Below are positions 1 through 7,540 of a DNA stretch of 31,369 nt, one piece after another. The notes below the pieces were generated by a model. That model saw only the letters and a list, made by a program, of their open reading frames with translations. It was not told where the DNA came from and ran no database searches. Location of the stretch: positions 1-31,369 of the IMG/VR virus record IMGVR_UViG_3300027740_000011; one strand, written 5' to 3'. The stretch comes from a virus (lineage: Duplodnaviria; Caudoviricetes). Made by a program: the position numbers and the translations under genes. How positions within the stretch are numbered: position 1 is the stretch's first letter; every line of letters starts with the position of its first letter.

Positions 1-151
1 TTGCGTCACAGAGGTTTGCGTCACAGAGGTCTGCGCCACGGAGGTTTGCGCCACGGAGGTCTGCGTCACAGAGGTTTGCGTCACGGAGGTCTGCGTCACA
101 GAGGTCCACTTCAATAATTAAATTCCCTGTCCAACGATTTAATATTTTCAT
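1..151 (-). CDS. Pentapeptide-repeat protein, copy 2 (partial, runs off the left edge)
   Basis: Manual translation from ATG at 151: MKILNRWTGNLIIEVDLCDADLRDANLCDADLRGANLRGADLCDANLCDA. AGGAG RBS at 159-163. A(D/N)Lxx repeats. Confidence 0.85.
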   Translation of the reverse strand, partial: MKILNRWTGNLIIEVDLCDADLRDANLCDADLRGANLRGADLCDANLCDA

Positions 152-557
152 TTTACTTTCTCCTTTGGGCTTTGCTCTGGGGTATTGGTTGAAGCTTGAT
201 TACCTCTTCTGCTGAGTGGACTCCTGAGAGATGACCATTGGCATTTGTCCAGTCCTTTCGATCTAAGATGAGCATAGGCGTCTTGCCATCTCTGGGTTTG
301 CGTCACGGAGGTTTGCGTCACAGAGGTCTGCGCCACGGAGGTTTGCGTCACAGAGGTTTGCGTCACGGAGGTCTGCGCCACAGAGGTTTGCGCCACGGAG
401 GTCTGCGTCACAGAGGTCTGCGCCACGGAGGTTTGCGTCACAGAGGTTTGCGTCACAGAGGTCTGCGCCACAGAGGTCTGCGCCACAGAGGTCCACTTCA
501 ATAATTAAATTCCCTGTCCAACGATTTAATATTTTCATTTTACTTTCTCCTTTGGGC
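97..557. repeat. 74-bp exact direct repeat (97-170 and 484-557, 387 bp apart) covering the RBS and first 17 codons of both pentapeptide genes
   Basis: CACAGAGGTCCACTTCAATAATT...TACTTTCTCCTTTGGGC is identical in both places. Confidence 0.95.
263..538 (-). CDS. Pentapeptide-repeat protein, copy 1 (repeat tract ends abruptly, probably truncated)
   Basis: 12 full A(D/N)L(C/R)(D/G) units encoded by the 15-bp repeat GCA RAC CTC YGT GRC. AGGAG RBS. Confidence 0.85.
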   Translation of the reverse strand: MKILNRWTGNLIIEVDLCGADLCGADLCDANLCDANLRGADLCDADLRGANLCGADLRDANLCDANLRGADLCDANLRDANPEMARRLCSS

Positions 558-681: not shown

Positions 682-710
682 AGTATACTAAATCCTGAAA
701 CAAAAGTAAA
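682..710 (-). promoter_or_regulatory. Sigma70-like leftward promoter
   Basis: TTTACT (710-705), 17 bp, TATACT (687-682), with an AT-rich upstream tract. The same motif recurs at 7676-7704. Confidence 0.7.
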
Positions 711-764
711 CAAAATAATACAGTTTTTTTTTAAGCATTAAAAATTAGTTTAGAATAATCGAAA

Positions 765-1001
765 CTATCTTGGGTCTGTCTTCCTGCCATTCTTCCAAGA
801 ATATTTACCATGTTGTTTATTAGTAAGCACTACAAGATTAATAACTCTATTGTCATGCCTTATACCATTCTTGTGATGGACGTGCTCTGTAGGTTTTAAT
901 TTCCTTCCTAAAATCTTTTCCATTATTTCTCTATGTTCAAATACAGCCTTGGCATTTCTATATCTTATTCTATATCCATCAGAACTTATATTATATTTCA
1001 T
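765..1001 (-). CDS. HNH endonuclease
   Basis: [30 protein letters not shown] motif. AT-rich. TAATG overlap with the helicase stop. Confidence 0.9.
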
Positions 1002-2332
1002 TACTTCCTCCTATTTCGTCGGGAAAGGATTATCTCAGCAAAGTCTTTGTCAGATTGAAGTACAGCAAGACAGTCTTCATCTATGGTGCCACGGCATACC
1101 ATATCTATATAAGTACAAGATATGGCTTCATTCATACCAGGTCTTGTGGTTCGATCTTCCAACTGCTGCCGGCATTCAGCACTGTAGTCGTTGGAATAAA
1201 TAATGACATAAGAGGCACCAGCAAGCTCATTCAAACCTCTGGCACCACTCTGGGCATTTGCTATGAAAATATCTGCTCCACCAGTATTAAATTTCTGCTT
1301 GGCCTCAACCTTTGTCTTATAGTTTACACCACCATAGTAAACTACTGACCGGTGTCCCTCTTTCAGCATACGCTCCTGGATAGATTCGATCTCTTTTCGG
1401 AAACGTGCCCAAATGACAATTTTCTCTTTCTGCTCTCGTAACTGGCCAACCACCTCAACCAATGACTCAAGTTTTGGGTTTGGCAAGATCGGCCTAGCAT
1501 CCATCTCACCAACACTTCCATCTTCACTCTGCTTAATTCCTGGGAAGAATCCACCTGCGATCTGAGAGCATCGAAGGAACTTTGTAATAACCATCGGAGC
1601 AGCACATGAGAAGTCATCATAAGATGATACAGCATCCTCATACATGGCTTGGTATGACTTCTCCTGCTCTTTGGTCATCTGAACATAGACAGTCTGATAA
1701 ACTTTTGGTGGAAGGGAAAGGCAGTCAGACTTCTTCACCCGATAGGCAATGCTGTAAAGCTCTTCATCAAATCCCTCTGGGTCCTTTACTGAGAGCACCT
1801 TGCCAAAATAGTCTACATCAAAATATCTCTCAACATGAGGATAATATTTAGAACCAAATACCCCTTCATCCACAAAGTGGTACTGAGAGAAAGCCTCATC
1901 AGCACCTTTGGGTATTGGATTGCCGGTCATGATTATCTTGAATGGTGCTTTCTTAAAATACTCCACCATGGTCTTTGTGCGTCCTGCTGTACGGGTCTTT
2001 ATGATTGTAGACTCATCCACCACCACAAGGTCAAACTTCGATCTGAGCAACTCAGGCAGTACACTATCAAGTCCCTCAGCATTTATAAGCACCCAGCAGA
2101 GAGTATCAGGATTGCTCTCTGAGAAAGTGTTAATGTCTTCTATAGCTCTCAGCCGTTCCTTCTTGCTACCTATGGCTGATGCCCAAATGGATCGGGAAGA
2201 ATGTTTATCCAGCTGACCGCCTTCTCCTCCCCATCCATCAACAATGTTAAGGATGGTGACAACTAAGACCTTTTGGACAAGGCCAATGGAGTTGAGGATT
2301 TCGCCGGTGTCAATGATGACTTTTGTCTTCAT
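1001..2332 (-). CDS. SNF2-family (SF2) helicase/ATPase, main fragment starting inside Walker A
   Basis: Motif Ia KVLVV, motif II VVVDES, motif [15 protein letters not shown], motif V GARGLN, motif [12 protein letters not shown]. The ORF starts at MKT. Confidence 0.9.
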
Positions 2333-2340
2333 TGTGCTCT

Positions 2341-2412
2341 TCAGCCCATGTCCATCAAGAGTGCAACTCCAAAACTCAATAGAGTTTCTTTTTTATCTTC
2401 TGGACGTGGCAT
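2341..2412 (-). CDS. 23-aa ORF carrying the first half of the helicase Walker A (MPRPEDKKETLLSFGVALLMDMG)
   Basis: Near-perfect Shine-Dalgarno AAGGAGGTGA at 2427-2418. ALLMDMG matches the SNF2 motif I pattern ALxMDMGTGKT. Confidence 0.7.
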   Translation of the reverse strand: MPRPEDKKETLLSFGVALLMDMG

Positions 2413-2568
2413 TGGCATCACCTCCTTTCTTTTTAATCCAATATTCTTTCAATCCTAGCATCATTTTATCATAATGCTTTTTATTATACATTGGATTATT
2501 CATTTTCATGCGCTTAGATTGTTCTGGACATTTCTTCCCATGATTTGTCTATATCTATTTACTCCCAT
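2393..2568 (-). pseudogene. Frameshifted small basic ORF with a NUMOD3-like motif
   Basis: MGVNRYR from ATG at 2568, then in the -1 frame TNHGKKCPEQSKRMKMNNPMYNKKH...ATSRR-stop. Very AT-rich. Confidence 0.4.
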
Positions 2569-2569
2569 T

Positions 2570-2908
2570 TCATTTCTCTTCTCTCACATGCTCCACAGAA
2601 CCATCAGGCAAGACCGGTCCCCACTTACGCTTCATGTTAATGGCCAGCTTCTTGAGAGTGGTATCAAAGAGCATGTCCACTGTCACCCCAGAATGGGCAG
2701 CATAGTCTAAGAGCAGCATGAAAATATCTGCCATCTCTGTGGGTGAGTTTGGCTTTGCTCTTAGCTCTTCTATTTCCTTGAGCATATGATTGAGCATGCC
2801 ATTTCTTCGATCTATTGGCATCTGCTTGCCATGACGATCTAAGATGCTTGACCCAAAGGTCTTATCACTCCAAGCTGCGATTGCATTTTGTAGCTGCTGT
2901 GCGTTCAT
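2570..2908 (-). CDS. DUF550-family dATP/dGTP pyrophosphohydrolase (MazG-like)
   Basis: WSDKTFG...LNHMLKEIEEL...EMADIFMLLLD...KLAINMKRKW...VEHVR signature. Confidence 0.85.
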   Translation of the reverse strand: MNAQQLQNAIAAWSDKTFGSSILDRHGKQMPIDRRNGMLNHMLKEIEELRAKPNSPTEMADIFMLLLDYAAHSGVTVDMLFDTTLKKLAINMKRKWGPVLPDGSVEHVREEK

Positions 2909-3153
2909 TCTTCTGTCTCCTTTTCGCTTCGATCTTTCATGACTTGCTTGAGACTGTACTTATCCACCTGTGACTTGAGAAGATCAACTGAATCATCCCT
3001 AAGACCTTCAGCAATACAATCCTTACAGACTACCTTCTCATACCTGACTAAGCAATCAGGACATACCTCAAAGTTGTCCCAGCATACAGCACAGATCTTC
3101 GAGACATATCCCAGATAAGACTTTTGACAATGAAGCACTTTACACTTAGCCAT
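2905..3153 (-). CDS. Cys-rich putative zinc-binding protein
   Basis: CxxxxC plus three CxxC pairs. Overlaps both neighbouring genes. Confidence 0.7.
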   Translation of the reverse strand: MAKCKVLHCQKSYLGYVSKICAVCWDNFEVCPDCLVRYEKVVCKDCIAEGLRDDSVDLLKSQVDKYSLKQVMKDRSEKETEE

Positions 3154-3475
3154 TTGGCCACCTATTCTCTATATGATTGTTGACTGAATAAGGAACTAAT
3201 TCTATGTGATCTGGATTGACACAATGCCTTCTCATACACTTGTGATGAATACAAAGATAAGAAGGAATAGAAGAGATGCCATTTACAATCCAATAAGCTA
3301 TTCGATGGGCATACTCTGCCTTACCATTAAACCAGAGAGCACCATACCCTTTCTTAGTGCATCCACCTAGCCATAACCAGCAATCATCATAGACCTCAGG
3401 ACTGGGATCAACTTTCTTGAGTGCTTGGATCTTGCTGAAGAATCTTTTTTGTACTGATTCTGAAATTGTGTTCAT
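3146..3475 (-). CDS. HNH homing-type endonuclease
   Basis: CWLWLG..KKGYG...AHRIAY...IHHKCMRRHCVNPDHIE motif. Confidence 0.9.
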   Translation of the reverse strand: MNTISESVQKRFFSKIQALKKVDPSPEVYDDCWLWLGGCTKKGYGALWFNGKAEYAHRIAYWIVNGISSIPSYLCIHHKCMRRHCVNPDHIELVPYSVNNHIENRWPNG

Positions 3476-3476
3476 T

Positions 3477-3788
3477 TCATTTCACCTTCATGCCAAACAT
3501 TGTGAGAGTAAACTCGAGAGCTTCAATCTGATGTGGAAGGCACTCTGTCTTAAAAGTATGCTTGTAGATGTGAATGACCTTCTTTCTCTTCTTCAGCCAT
3601 TCTTCTACCTCAGGATGACTCAGACCTAATGCCTTGAGCTTCTTATAGGCTACAGCAGTGAGGGGAAACTCCCATGCCTTGTATACCTTATTGAAAATGC
3701 CGCAATTCATTAATCTGATCTGAGTTACCAGAGCAGCATCATAAGGAAAGCGAAGCATGAACTTGCCATTCTCAATTGTTAGGTTCAT
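3477..3788 (-). CDS. N-terminal fragment of the SNF2 helicase (HARP-like domain plus Q motif)
   Basis: LRFPYDAALVTQIR...FNKVYKAWEFP (HARP-like) and FKTECLPHQIEALEF (Q motif). Start chosen at the ATGA overlap (3788). Confidence 0.7.
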   Translation of the reverse strand: MNLTIENGKFMLRFPYDAALVTQIRLMNCGIFNKVYKAWEFPLTAVAYKKLKALGLSHPEVEEWLKKRKKVIHIYKHTFKTECLPHQIEALEFTLTMFGMKVK

Positions 3789-4099
3789 TTGCCAAAACAC
3801 TCCGGCATGTCTTCTGGTATCCCAGGATGAAAATTAAACTCATAGCAATGGCGTCTCTCATGCCTCACCACAGCAGTATAGCAATCTGGGCTGTATCTAT
3901 CTTCTGACATGAGAGAGATATCACACAACACCTCATATTTATAGTCCTTCCATCGGGCATGCCCCAAATTAGATGCACCACCAGATATAGCCAGAAGTTG
4001 CTCAGGAGTTACTTCATGGTAGGTGATCTTTGTATGATTACCACAGCCAGGGCCAAGAAGAAACAAACCAAGCAGAATGGCATATATTATAATGGGCAT
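3785..4099 (-). CDS. Putative lipoprotein/exported protein with an HExxH motif
   Basis: Hydrophobic N-terminus ending LGPGC. HERRH motif. Confidence 0.6.
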   Translation of the reverse strand: MPIIIYAILLGLFLLGPGCGNHTKITYHEVTPEQLLAISGGASNLGHARWKDYKYEVLCDISLMSEDRYSPDCYTAVVRHERRHCYEFNFHPGIPEDMPECFGK

Positions 4100-4341
4100 G
4101 ATGTCTTCTCCAAGTCACCATCTTGGGTGACAGTATAATACTCATTGCAATTATTGCAGTAGAGATGGCCAACTCCTTGGATGGTAAGTCTGCCAACGCA
4201 GATCGGGCACTCCCAGTGTCTTCCCTCTCTATGTGCAGCCGGCAAAGGCTTGGGCCAACCGCTAGTGATGCTGTCTTGATAGCCTTGCTCTAGCTTCTGC
4301 TCTGCTATGACTGCGGCCTTGCTTGGCTTTTTGGTCTTCAT
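4087..4341 (-). CDS. Zinc-ribbon protein
   Basis: CPIC...CNNC. Lies in the gene run with overlaps. Confidence 0.7.
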   Translation of the reverse strand: MKTKKPSKAAVIAEQKLEQGYQDSITSGWPKPLPAAHREGRHWECPICVGRLTIQGVGHLYCNNCNEYYTVTQDGDLEKTSCPL

Positions 4342-4457
4342 GACTTCTCTCTCTTCTCTTTCCTATTCATAGGTATTTGAAAGGAAAGTCCAGCCAACCT
4401 ATCCATGAGCTTTCTGAACCATGACTTCTTAATTCCCTTCTCCATGTATTTGCTCAT
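4338..4457 (-). CDS. 39-aa hypothetical protein (not in the ORF track)
   Basis: MSKYMEKGIKKSWFRKLMDRLAGLSFQIPMNRKEKREKS. ATGA overlaps at both ends. Confidence 0.65.
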   Translation of the reverse strand: MSKYMEKGIKKSWFRKLMDRLAGLSFQIPMNRKEKREKS

Positions 4458-4906
4458 GGCAGTCTTCCCTCTTCAGTCTCAGCCACTATCTCTGGCATGG
4501 ACTTACCCAGTGCTTGCCTTGACTCCTCTGATATTGGGCCTGACTCCTCAAACGCTCCAACACACTTGGCATTTTCAAGATGTTCTTTATGCTCCTTAGC
4601 TATCTCAAGGAAGCCACCACCATAAAGGGAACGGATGGCATACCCACCAATAAGGCCCACCACATCAAATCCTTGTATGATATCTGTGATGAAGGTCTTG
4701 AATGTACGTCCTGTGGGAGCAAAATAAATAGCATCACCAGCATTACGAATATCTGACTTAACTTCAGTCAGCACCAAATCATCACCAACTTGGAACTGAC
4801 CAATGCTAAAGATGATGATACATTTCTGTCCACCTTCTTGGATACGATTGAACTCAACCTCTCCCACCTTTAGATCGTGCTTTCTCTTTTCCCTTTTCTG
4901 TTTCAT
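4454..4906 (-). CDS. ASCH/DUF3850-like domain protein
   Basis: HDLK...EFNRIQEGGQK...FQVGDDLVLTE...PTGR...ITDI pattern. Confidence 0.7.
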   Translation of the reverse strand: MKQKREKRKHDLKVGEVEFNRIQEGGQKCIIIFSIGQFQVGDDLVLTEVKSDIRNAGDAIYFAPTGRTFKTFITDIIQGFDVVGLIGGYAIRSLYGGGFLEIAKEHKEHLENAKCVGAFEESGPISEESRQALGKSMPEIVAETEEGRLP

Positions 4907-5096
4907 TGTGTGTGTCCTCCTCTTTCTTAGAGTTAGGTTTTATCTCTTCAAATGTAAGTCTCACATGCATATAGTTCTCATTGCGCTTTTCTTTATACAC
5001 AACTCCAAGGTGGAGCATGTCACCATTAGCGTTGGGACCCTTCATGAGCATGTTTACGTCATACGGGCTGATGTATCCCTCAAATATTCTAGCCAT
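4854..5096 (-). CDS. Hypothetical protein
   Basis: 80-aa ORF in the co-oriented gene run. Confidence 0.6.
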   Translation of the reverse strand: MARIFEGYISPYDVNMLMKGPNANGDMLHLGVVYKEKRNENYMHVRLTFEEIKPNSKKEEDTHNETEKGKEKARSKGGRG

Positions 5097-5277
5097 TATT
5101 GACTAGCCTTAAAGAGTGATGCACACCAGTGTTTTGATAGTCACGATAAAATCTGATGACTTTCGTATTAAGAGAGAAAGGAGAAGGAGTGACTTCAACC
5201 ACACCGGCCCTGAAAAGTTCATCTGATATCTCCACATCTTTTCTCCATCCATCAATCAGCAAAGTTATTGTAACCAT
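5089..5277 (-). CDS. Hypothetical protein
   Basis: GGAGGT RBS precedes the ATG at 5277, just after the primase stop. Confidence 0.6.
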   Translation of the reverse strand: MVTITLLIDGWRKDVEISDELFRAGVVEVTPSPFSLNTKVIRFYRDYQNTGVHHSLRLVNNG

Positions 5278-5278
5278 C

Positions 5279-7540
5279 TCAAAATACCTCCTTCTCGCCA
5301 GCAATCTTCTCTCGAATGTTAAATGTATACTGCCATGAGTTTGTAGTTATGTTTTTATAACGCTCATACCCATACATCTCAGCAAGTACAGTCACACGCC
5401 CATGGATCCACTTCCCAAAACCTTGGATGCTTATAGGGAAGCTCTTGAGATTTTTATCTTTTGCCAAAGGCATGAGATCGTTGTATAGGTCTTTTGCTGC
5501 TATCACTACCTTGCCAGTTTGATGATAGTTCTTACTGCTCTGGATCATCCAGTCATCTAGCAGGTCAAGCAATGGGTCAAACTCAGCACTGAATCCTTCC
5601 TGGAGCTTATTCATATTCTCGAATGTCTGCTGGCAAACCTCACGCTCTTTCGGGAAGACTTGGAATGCGAAGTCAGCCATCTCCACCTGCCGGCAATAGT
5701 TCTTTAATTCGATCTGCGCATTGCCATTCTCTTTGAGGTTAGCGAGTATGCTATTCAAGTTCAAGAGCAAGCTTGACCAGATTGTGCTACGTTCTTTTTC
5801 TAGGTTATTATAGAAGGTAAACTCATTGATCAACTTTGTCTTCTTAGCTGGATGGGATAAGCGAATGATACAAAGACGCTGAGCAATATCATTCTCTCTA
5901 ATCTTTGGTGAGTGAGCAGACACAGCCAGCCATACTTTTGGCCTGAACTTGATACTCTTCCGTGCATACTTCTCACGGAAGACAGACTCAGCGCCGGTAG
6001 CCAGCATGCGGAACTTTGTCTTGATACTTGGGTCACTCTCATTGAACTCATCGAAGAACAAATGGCGGGAAGACTTGATCATCTCAAGGAATATGTAGTC
6101 CTCTTCTGGGATGCTGTTGGGATTGAACCGGCCATCAGTGAATCCATTTAAGATGCCCTTTATGATTTTAAGGAGCATAGTCTTGCCAGACCCAGGCTCA
6201 CCAATGACACATAAGATGTTGCGCATCTGCGGTTCAAAGAAGGTCTGATAGAACCACGTCTTGAGCAGAAACTTCTGAGCATCACCCCCATCATGAAGGA
6301 ATAGATCGAAGAGACTCTCAAGGCTAGTGCCTGTCCTTATCCTGTGCATGTCTTCTATAAAGGATAGGTCAAGGTCATTGCTGGACTGAATATAGATGCC
6401 ATCAAAGCCCTGAGGCACTACAGATATGGCACTGATACTTCGATCGGATGTTATCCTGATCATGCCATTGTTCTTTGTACCTATATAGAGCAGACCGCCA
6501 TCATGGTCATAATGGCTAAAGGTATGAACCTTGCTATCAGTTGTTTGGAGTGCCAGCTGATACAAATGGTCATATATCTGACGCCAGAGAGTTACAGAAG
6601 GAAGGAACCCATACACACGACAGAGGTGGGTCTGAATACGCTCATCAGTTAAGATAGAAGTGCCATTAAGAGCTATGGCAAATTCCTGACTGCTATTATA
6701 TGGTATTATCTTGCCACCATTACTCTCTATGTCTTGCTGAATGAAGGTTGCTATGTTGACATACTTCTGCTCTGCTGTTCCTTGACTGTTTATTATTTCT
6801 GATATTGACTGCTGTGGGTTGAACTCTACCTCTTCAGCTTCTTCTATGAGAGAAGTAAGCAACCCATCAGCAAATGCCAATGAAGTTCTATGGTAAAGGT
6901 CACTGATGTCCTTGACTGCTATCTCTTCTCCATTGTATTCGATCTTCGATGGCAGGTGGATGCCCTTTACAAACCTAGCAATGCTGCTAAGTTTTATTGA
7001 CCACTTTCTTGCATATTCCTGCCCAGGCTTATCATTGTCAAATACAATGTACACTTCCTTATTTTCAAACAACTCCATCCACTCATCAGGAAAGTTGTTC
7101 ACTCCTGGGAGAGCCATAGCATATCTCTCCATCTCATACAGCGTAAGCATGTCCCAGAATCCCTCAGTCAAGAAGATTGTAGGAGCACTCATGCTGATGC
7201 CAAGCAAATTTAGATCGGGCTTTTGTTTCTGCTTATCTGAGGCATTGATGAAGCGGAGATTGTCTTGGTAGGTTGTATAGCTGACACAATGGTAACTGTG
7301 CTCACCCATCTTAATGCCGATGATAGGGTATGAGTTTTTACTCTTCTTGTCTGAGCTATCTGAACTGACAGCTTGGCCTTGTATAATGCCATGGGCAGTA
7401 AGAGTCTCAAACTTATAGTTCTTTGTAGTGATGAAATCCTTAAACAGCTTCTTGCTAAATGCAGCTGTGATGGGGATGGCATCTTCTATATGAAATTTTT
7501 TCTTGGATTTTGAAACAGTCTGCTGATTAGGGGAATACAT
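5279..7540 (-). CDS. DNA primase-helicase (TOPRIM domain plus SF3/D5-like P-loop helicase)
   Basis: TOPRIM: IFLTEGFWD, ALPG, IVFDNDKPG, KDISD. Walker A GEPGSGKT, Walker B LFFDE, RKSIKF/AQRL. Confidence 0.85.
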   Translation of the reverse strand: MYSPNQQTVSKSKKKFHIEDAIPITAAFSKKLFKDFITTKNYKFETLTAHGIIQGQAVSSDSSDKKSKNSYPIIGIKMGEHSYHCVSYTTYQDNLRFINASDKQKQKPDLNLLGISMSAPTIFLTEGFWDMLTLYEMERYAMALPGVNNFPDEWMELFENKEVYIVFDNDKPGQEYARKWSIKLSSIARFVKGIHLPSKIEYNGEEIAVKDISDLYHRTSLAFADGLLTSLIEEAEEVEFNPQQSISEIINSQGTAEQKYVNIATFIQQDIESNGGKIIPYNSSQEFAIALNGTSILTDERIQTHLCRVYGFLPSVTLWRQIYDHLYQLALQTTDSKVHTFSHYDHDGGLLYIGTKNNGMIRITSDRSISAISVVPQGFDGIYIQSSNDLDLSFIEDMHRIRTGTSLESLFDLFLHDGGDAQKFLLKTWFYQTFFEPQMRNILCVIGEPGSGKTMLLKIIKGILNGFTDGRFNPNSIPEEDYIFLEMIKSSRHLFFDEFNESDPSIKTKFRMLATGAESVFREKYARKSIKFRPKVWLAVSAHSPKIRENDIAQRLCIIRLSHPAKKTKLINEFTFYNNLEKERSTIWSSLLLNLNSILANLKENGNAQIELKNYCRQVEMADFAFQVFPKEREVCQQTFENMNKLQEGFSAEFDPLLDLLDDWMIQSSKNYHQTGKVVIAAKDLYNDLMPLAKDKNLKSFPISIQGFGKWIHGRVTVLAEMYGYERYKNITTNSWQYTFNIREKIAGEKEVF

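Follow-up and report, generated by a model that had tools for sequence, protein, structure and literature searches.

The window analysed here, a phage record of 31,369 nucleotides (31 kb), has a minus-strand replication arm, and its terminase, portal, capsid and sheath-type genes are encoded by the plus strand. The gene of interest encodes the body of an SNF2-type helicase (1001..2335, minus strand; Pfam PF00176 and PF00271), which resumes at the Thr codon 2335-2333 and belongs to superfamily 2 (SF2), with both SNF2-rel_dom and Helicase_C scoring above the Pfam cut-off. Counted from ATG 2332, the downstream frame (2332-1001) is open for 443 codons. A preliminary description of this DNA had credited these 443 residues with motifs Ia to VI; motifs V and VI are indeed present, but deviate in the window copy. 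The helicase is a gene in pieces in this clade. A separate 107-aa ORF (3477..3800, minus) matches the N-terminal part of full-length homologs and contains an HQxEA segment that we take to be Q-motif-like, and the split is also seen in two relatives, L002 and L284 (L284:3688-4008/3992-5332). Some homologs are full length, but in many the protein begins immediately ahead of the strand that runs into Walker A. Between the two helicase pieces lie two passenger genes (2570..3153, minus), an 82-aa Cys-rich ORF and a dATP/dGTP pyrophosphohydrolase, both of which are present in L002 too. Further, two HNH endonuclease genes could be identified, one directly after the N-terminal piece (3146..3475, minus; Pfam HNH_3, E 1.4e-6) and one of 78 aa overlapping the helicase stop (765..1001, minus; HNH_3, E 1.9e-9), and both are absent from L002. 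Tandem pentapeptide-repeat genes occupy window 1-538 (minus), with a longer array in the relative L001.

The helicase gene is interrupted within its Walker A motif by 8 extra nt (2336..2343, minus). The insert begins with the stop codon TGA (2343-2341), followed by 2 nt and a candidate landing triplet, AGC (2338-2336). It is preceded by the Gly codon GGC (2344..2346, minus), the putative take-off site, and followed by the Thr codon ACA (2335-2333) and ATG (2332-2330). A flanking G/GC repeat lets the insert boundary slide by 1-2 nt. Upstream, a leader ORF of 23 codons (2341..2412, minus) comprises a short N-terminal extension, the pre-P-loop strand and the first half of Walker A. It reads ALLMDMG-stop, ending at 2341, and the TMKT frame resumes 8 bases past the Gly codon. 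An AlphaFold prediction for the helicase of L002 has a mean pLDDT of 82.8 and places the leader-encoded residues 14-20 in the strand that precedes the P-loop; this strand belongs to the core of RecA-like folds. The leader is preceded by a strong Shine-Dalgarno (SD) sequence (2419..2427, minus), whose anti-SD pairing of -12.6 kcal/mol before 2412 agrees with the near-perfect SD noted earlier, and the weak pairing before ATG 2332 (-4.0 kcal/mol) agrees with the reported lack of an obvious SD there. Two adjacent hairpins are predicted (2311..2345, minus; -11.8 kcal/mol, z -3.35): a mini-hairpin of 3 bp that contains the stop (2345-2336) and one that covers ATG 2332 (2334-2311). The whole leader region (window 2290-2430, minus) also folds more stably than shuffled sequences (z -3.83); this fold pairs the SD region with downstream sequence, and translational control is possible.

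Comparison with close relatives indicates that the insert is natural. Over 6633 nt (700-7332), a stretch that includes the insert, L001 matches the window at every position; the 443-aa product is recorded on 6 contigs from JGI/IMG, Logan and ENA. L002 (91% aa identity) lacks exactly these 8 nt, reads through DMGTMKT and encodes one 467-aa ORF from the same SD and start as the window. The 8-nt insertion into Walker A proposed in the preliminary description is thus borne out. The Met in place of the second Walker A Gly is likewise natural, being shared with L002 and P0002-P0006, and is a clade trait. Intact genes keep a GTMK or GTRK Walker A with Met or Arg for the second Gly (L002, P0002-P0006; P0032, P0035, P0036). 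The six closest relatives of the window (L002, P0002-P0006) are without the insert, and a scan for its GTMK clade in 43 of the 64 IMG/VR parts returned only the sequences of L001 and L002. In the wider clade of the window, the N-terminus of P0008 reads as an out-of-frame Walker A, which suggests, from the protein only, about 5 extra bases after the second P-loop Gly; its DNA was not found in IMG/VR.

At a distant locus, L360, a stop-containing 9-nt insert was found at the same codon, and IMG/VR was therefore scanned. A scan requiring a stop or TGG after the Gly codon yielded 52 loci, 38 of which are SNF2 helicases, and TGG followed the Gly codon in none of these 38. A second IMG/VR scan, in which nothing was imposed on the insert sequence, returned 50 distinct loci, including 37 SNF2 helicases, from now on referred to as carriers; as the carriers are related, these counts represent non-independent events. 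All 37 inserts after the first Gly start with a stop codon (TGA 21, TAG 13, TAA 3), a feature of none of the 13 non-helicase loci hit by chance. The unconstrained scan found no helicase with a stop-free in-frame insert at this site. The codon before the insert is GGC or GGT in 37/37 carriers vs 91 of the 119 uninterrupted sites retrieved; uninterrupted sites number about 2300 as estimated from 4 of the 64 IMG/VR parts. Among 401 Bacillota genomes there were seven matches, all following the rule of GGY, stop and Gly-compatible end (7/7); six were new, and all of these are helicases. One of the seven bacterial carriers, L579, has a further break after 135 codons. Ten of the 37 carriers have contig ids of the kind that IMG presumably gives to genomes, not metagenomes. 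No cultured phage or plasmid reaches 60% identity to the carriers, and THSA-485A and FP_Epona are annotated with a single helicase CDS across the site. The insert, whose presence in aligned relatives the preliminary description suggested checking, recurs in distant carriers, but the closest six relatives are without it.

Sequencing or assembly error could be entertained because assemblies may share source material. It is opposed by the identity of L001, by the recording of the product by three assembly sources and by inserts of the same kind in 37 IMG/VR loci and 7 bacterial genomes; judged from the assemblies, error is effectively excluded, and we give it a negligible probability.

Related arrangements occur outside the first-Gly site. 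In another SNF2 family, 3 helicases among 25 hits follow the same rule at the second P-loop Gly. These three, L558, L559 and L568, carry 4- and 5-nt stop-first inserts after this Gly (near 2001-2028); their SNF2 family is unsplit, and no HNH motif was found in their fetched flanks. A different helicase, L399, which was not counted among the 37 carriers, has an 8-nt stop-first insert before LGKT (near 1021-1051), with only 84 open codons after it. Alignment-driven scans returned 241 loci, mostly distant relatives. Walker A was in frame in 228 of these, 9 lay at an edge, and the 4 flagged loci are one intein-like insertion, two motif-rule misses and L360 with its insert. The intein-like insertion lies at the same Walker A junction in L286 (L286:3540-4907), and this junction is evidently hit by more than one kind of element.

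The carriers' inserts share a set of features beyond their position. The 19 distinct first-Gly inserts are 4, 5, 6, 8, 9 or 10 nt long and cover all three frames. With respect to tRNA-Gly(GCC), the last triplet is a fully matched GGY in 10/19 and matches at two of three positions in 9/19, with none worse. In the window, AGC pairs at 2/3 positions, the mismatch being at codon position 1, and the +1 triplet GCT pairs as well by the same count. L580, with an insert ending in GGC, and L579/L581, with inserts ending in AGC, have near-identical flanks, so AGC seems to be a matched site changed by one base. The window insert is itself one base apart from the 8-nt inserts of L366 and L368. The loop into which the inserts fall is uniform, its spacer being 2 residues in 98 of 102 scorable homologs. 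Given lengths of 4-10 nt across all frames, no single frameshift or readthrough event restores every gene, and either would add 1-3 variable residues per insert. A -1 shift onto GGG, or similar frame-specific recoding whose extra loop residues the enzyme tolerates, is consistent with the -1 frame being open through the window insert, and G runs before a stop can be shift-prone. However, the family would then need -1 shifts, +1 shifts and readthrough in different members, the Gly-compatible last triplet would be left unexplained, and a stop-free in-frame insert occurs in none of the 37; we regard this explanation as improbable. Recoding of TGA or a suppressor tRNA was rejected, as TGA ends 15 of 41 genes, no tRNA genes are present and readthrough would be out of frame. 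An intein or a group I/II intron was likewise rejected for an insert of only 8 nt.

Both sides of the insert show signs of translation. The downstream frame runs for 429-445 codons in 35/37 carriers; L390 and L401, with longer frames of 547 and >837 codons, were for this reason excluded from the dN/dS groups. Among carriers of the same insert class, dN/dS downstream is 0.074, 0.054, 0.057 and 0.052, with pS up to 0.36, so that the purifying selection looked for downstream is found in these groups. Leu codons just upstream of the insert vary synonymously among carriers. Taken together, the low dN/dS and the synonymous Leu codons indicate that both flanks of the insert are translated under constraint. 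For the window, dN/dS vs L002 is 0.155 for the leader (23 codons) and 0.099 for the helicase body, similar to neighbouring genes; the latter value mostly records time before the insertion, and window and L001 are identical. Termination at TGA with reinitiation at ATG 2332 would instead give a 23-aa peptide and a 443-aa protein, acting apart or reassembled. The ATG lies 8 nt past the stop and the helicase gene is already in pieces, both of which would suit such a product. It would, however, use an ATG with a weak SD that sits in a predicted hairpin, and would part the pre-P-loop strand from the body. Most carriers lack a start codon where the frame resumes, and their TGKT is nonetheless retained and varies synonymously. 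We therefore hold reinitiation to be very improbable, the least likely of the explanations that accept the sequence as correct.

The reading that we consider best, and reasonably probable, is a programmed stop-hop of peptidyl-tRNA-Gly over the insert. With UGA occupying the A site, peptidyl-tRNA-Gly would detach from GGC in the P site, move 8 nt along the mRNA and re-pair on AGC; translation would then resume at the Thr codon and yield an intact MDMG-TMKT loop. The insert would thus be a non-coding gap in Walker A that the ribosome likely hops, as it likely does in dozens of other phages with an additional 4-10 bases at this position. Whatever the insert length, such a hop gives one chain, and a single chain without gap residues seems the simplest product. 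Bypass as proposed in the preliminary description is supported by the relatives, which share the codon, the leading stop, the Gly-compatible end, the spread over all frames and purifying selection. For the proposed take-off at GGC and landing on AGC, the stop directly after the Gly codon follows the pattern of 37/37 carriers and 7/7 bacterial matches, but AGC is unmatched at position 1. No shared strong or stimulatory RNA structure was found across 18 carrier contexts. We infer the hop, its efficiency and its purpose alike.

Removal of the 4-10 nt at the RNA level, by a micro-intron or polymerase skip followed by standard translation, would also give one chain. If the cut fell behind the first or the second G of GGY, every carrier would regain a Gly codon, and the freedom of the first base in the last triplet would be accounted for. 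What is conserved, however, is the meaning of the stop (three codons, never TGG) and not its sequence, which favours translation. There is no homopolymer run at the site, and we know of no bacterial machinery for such small and variable introns. RNA-level removal is thus quite improbable in our view, close to frame-specific recoding in this respect but slightly below it.

The carriers point to a link between the insert and HNH endonucleases. An HNH motif lies within 900 nt upstream in 21/35 carriers vs 0/59 non-carriers, a contrast that is confounded by kinship, as only 4/68 non-carriers are at least 49% identical to the carriers' group. All five of the carriers' HNH proteins tested by Pfam HNH_3 pass (5/5). 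The gene order in many carriers is Q-motif piece, HNH gene, new SD with short extension, strand with Gly codon, insert and body, and a GGAGGTG/AGGTGAT motif like the SD of the window is found before the leader in most carriers. In this arrangement the HNH gene splits the helicase just upstream, like T4 gene 39-mobA-gene 60 in miniature. Only 8/15 distinct inserts are accompanied by HNH, and some carriers have lost HNH or re-fused the first piece with the insert kept. The link between HNH gene and insert suggested for the window holds at the family level. Of the two HNH proteins of the window, it is the downstream one (1001-765; tblastn E 5e-5 to 8e-10), and not the upstream one, that those of the carriers resemble. 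A 38-aa ORF overlapping the leader's SD (2393..2509, minus) sits where the carriers' HNH gene ends and is a possible endonuclease remnant; its NUMOD3 match has an E-value of only 0.36, below cut-off, and no longer relatives were found. By analogy with the reported T4 gene 60 insert and MobA, the gap would likely serve to disrupt the target site of a homing endonuclease within a loop that has no room for extra residues.

The insert in the window lineage is probably a separate gain, because the six closest relatives are without it. In a quick tree of 44 rows, with P0008 labelled by inference, the insert label needs at least 8 changes, 7 of which are forced by well-supported branches. The window nests among insert-free relatives, and its identity to the main group of carriers is 29%. 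A 12-nt tandem duplication combined with a 4-nt deletion would suffice to generate the insert from the flanking sequence, a construction allowed by only 146 of 65536 8-mers, yet a single base separates it from inserts in that distant group. The first 120 nt after the insert are 78% identical to L002 vs 88-96% in the middle of the gene. A convergent local origin and import on a homing tract would both fit these observations. A divergent patch in motifs V-VI (window 1075-1260, minus) lies next to the downstream HNH gene and is a possible co-converted cleavage region.

It should be noted that the window copy could be dead or decaying, the insert having recently inactivated a dispensable helicase, whatever distant carriers do. 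In keeping with this, amino-acid change is in excess on the window branch (18 vs 5, p 0.011, for polarised changes against L002, and 28 vs 8), motifs V and VI deviate, with a motif VI Leu found in no other sequence among 228 examined, the insert can be assembled from local sequence, and the Walker A of the clade already has Met for Gly. Nonetheless, all 443 codons stay open, and three sources record the product, on 6 contigs. It is unlikely that random damage would strike this very codon, open with a stop and differ by a single base from inserts in carriers that are 29% identical. The excess changes cluster beside the downstream HNH gene (12/18 in codons 358-420) and involve multi-base codon swaps, a pattern that resembles an imported tract more than dispersed decay. 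The window copy may be under relaxed selection, or contain an imported tract. Recent inactivation, raised at the outset as an alternative, is thus excluded for the insert family and left standing in part for the window copy, where we consider it unlikely, although it is the likeliest of the competing explanations.

Returning to the stop-hop, a broader proposal can be formulated, which we advance with even confidence. A minimal signal, consisting of a Gly codon, a stop and up to 7 nt ending in a near-cognate triplet, would have evolved repeatedly in phage SNF2 helicase genes without the apparatus of T4 gene 60. It would tolerate unmatched landing, arise by local duplication and deletion, and shield the P-loop from a linked HNH homing endonuclease. 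The 19 natural inserts of 4-10 nt, with matched and unmatched landing in one conserved loop, form a natural set of alleles with which to explore the minimal signal for a ribosomal hop and the looseness of P-site re-pairing that is tolerated. If the proposal is true, it would explain a class of apparently broken phage helicase genes; natural stop-hopping would be common and overlooked, and such genes would be misannotated as truncated or as pseudogenes.

Utilised bypassing is known from few systems, namely T4 gene 60 and its homologs, a Streptomyces phage terminase and one yeast mitochondrion. In the full-text literature covered, which includes few subscription journals, no report of bypass in an SNF2 helicase was found. 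The Hau3 terminase of a Streptomyces phage has a short coding gap that is hopped from a Gly-ending context, and for a UAA variant the junction peptide was detected by mass spectrometry in E. coli (PMC10732093). As described in the available portion of that paper, which makes no mention of helicases, the natural Hau3 hop is triggered by the rare codon UUA, not by a stop, and concerns a different gene. A 2016 review, as far as its accessible text goes, describes synthetic stop-hops in E. coli and states that no natural in-frame stop hop was known at the time (PMC5009743). The mitochondrial byps of Magnusiomyces treated there differ in involving unused codons and a relaxed mitochondrial system. 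In phage Aeh1, nrdA is split by mobE, a free-standing HNH gene, and the pieces are separately translated, as described in bioRxiv 10.1101/2022.08.31.505936; this case has no bypass gap, unlike the window helicase.

The closest parallel is the T4 gene 39-mobA-gene 60 region. The accessible text of the preprint on the MobA element (bioRxiv 10.1101/2022.08.31.505936), in which helicase is not mentioned, reports that the element's insert blocks nicking and that T4-type bypass cassettes use matched landing codons. In T4 gene 60 and the carriers alike, a conserved gene has been divided by an HNH gene into ORF1 and ORF2, with a newly acquired N-terminal extension, and the gap follows a Gly codon and begins with a stop. 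They also share endonuclease loss, retained split and secondary fusion (L377, L405, L411; L366 group, L381), paralleling the progressive loss described for the MobA element. There are differences as well. The T4 gap lies in a topoisomerase TOPRIM domain, measures 20-50 nt, uses a tRNA-Gly for GGA, has a matched landing codon and follows a leader of about 45 codons, whereas the gaps described here lie in an SNF2 Walker A, measure 4-10 nt, follow GGY, have mismatched landing triplets in about half of cases and follow leaders of about 16-23 codons. In addition, no shared T4-type stem-loop or in-gap SD was found in the carriers. Instead of a topoisomerase large subunit with a 20-50 nt cassette, the window has an SNF2 gene with 8 nt. 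By analogy, the window insert would work like T4 gene 60 bypassing, but it is not a MobA element, because the gene is different, the gap far shorter, the tRNA-Gly another one and the landing often unmatched. If the hop is real, the window would present a rare natural case of very short translational bypassing and, next to T4 gene 60, a second case, independent of the first, in which a homing endonuclease is coupled to a bypass gap.
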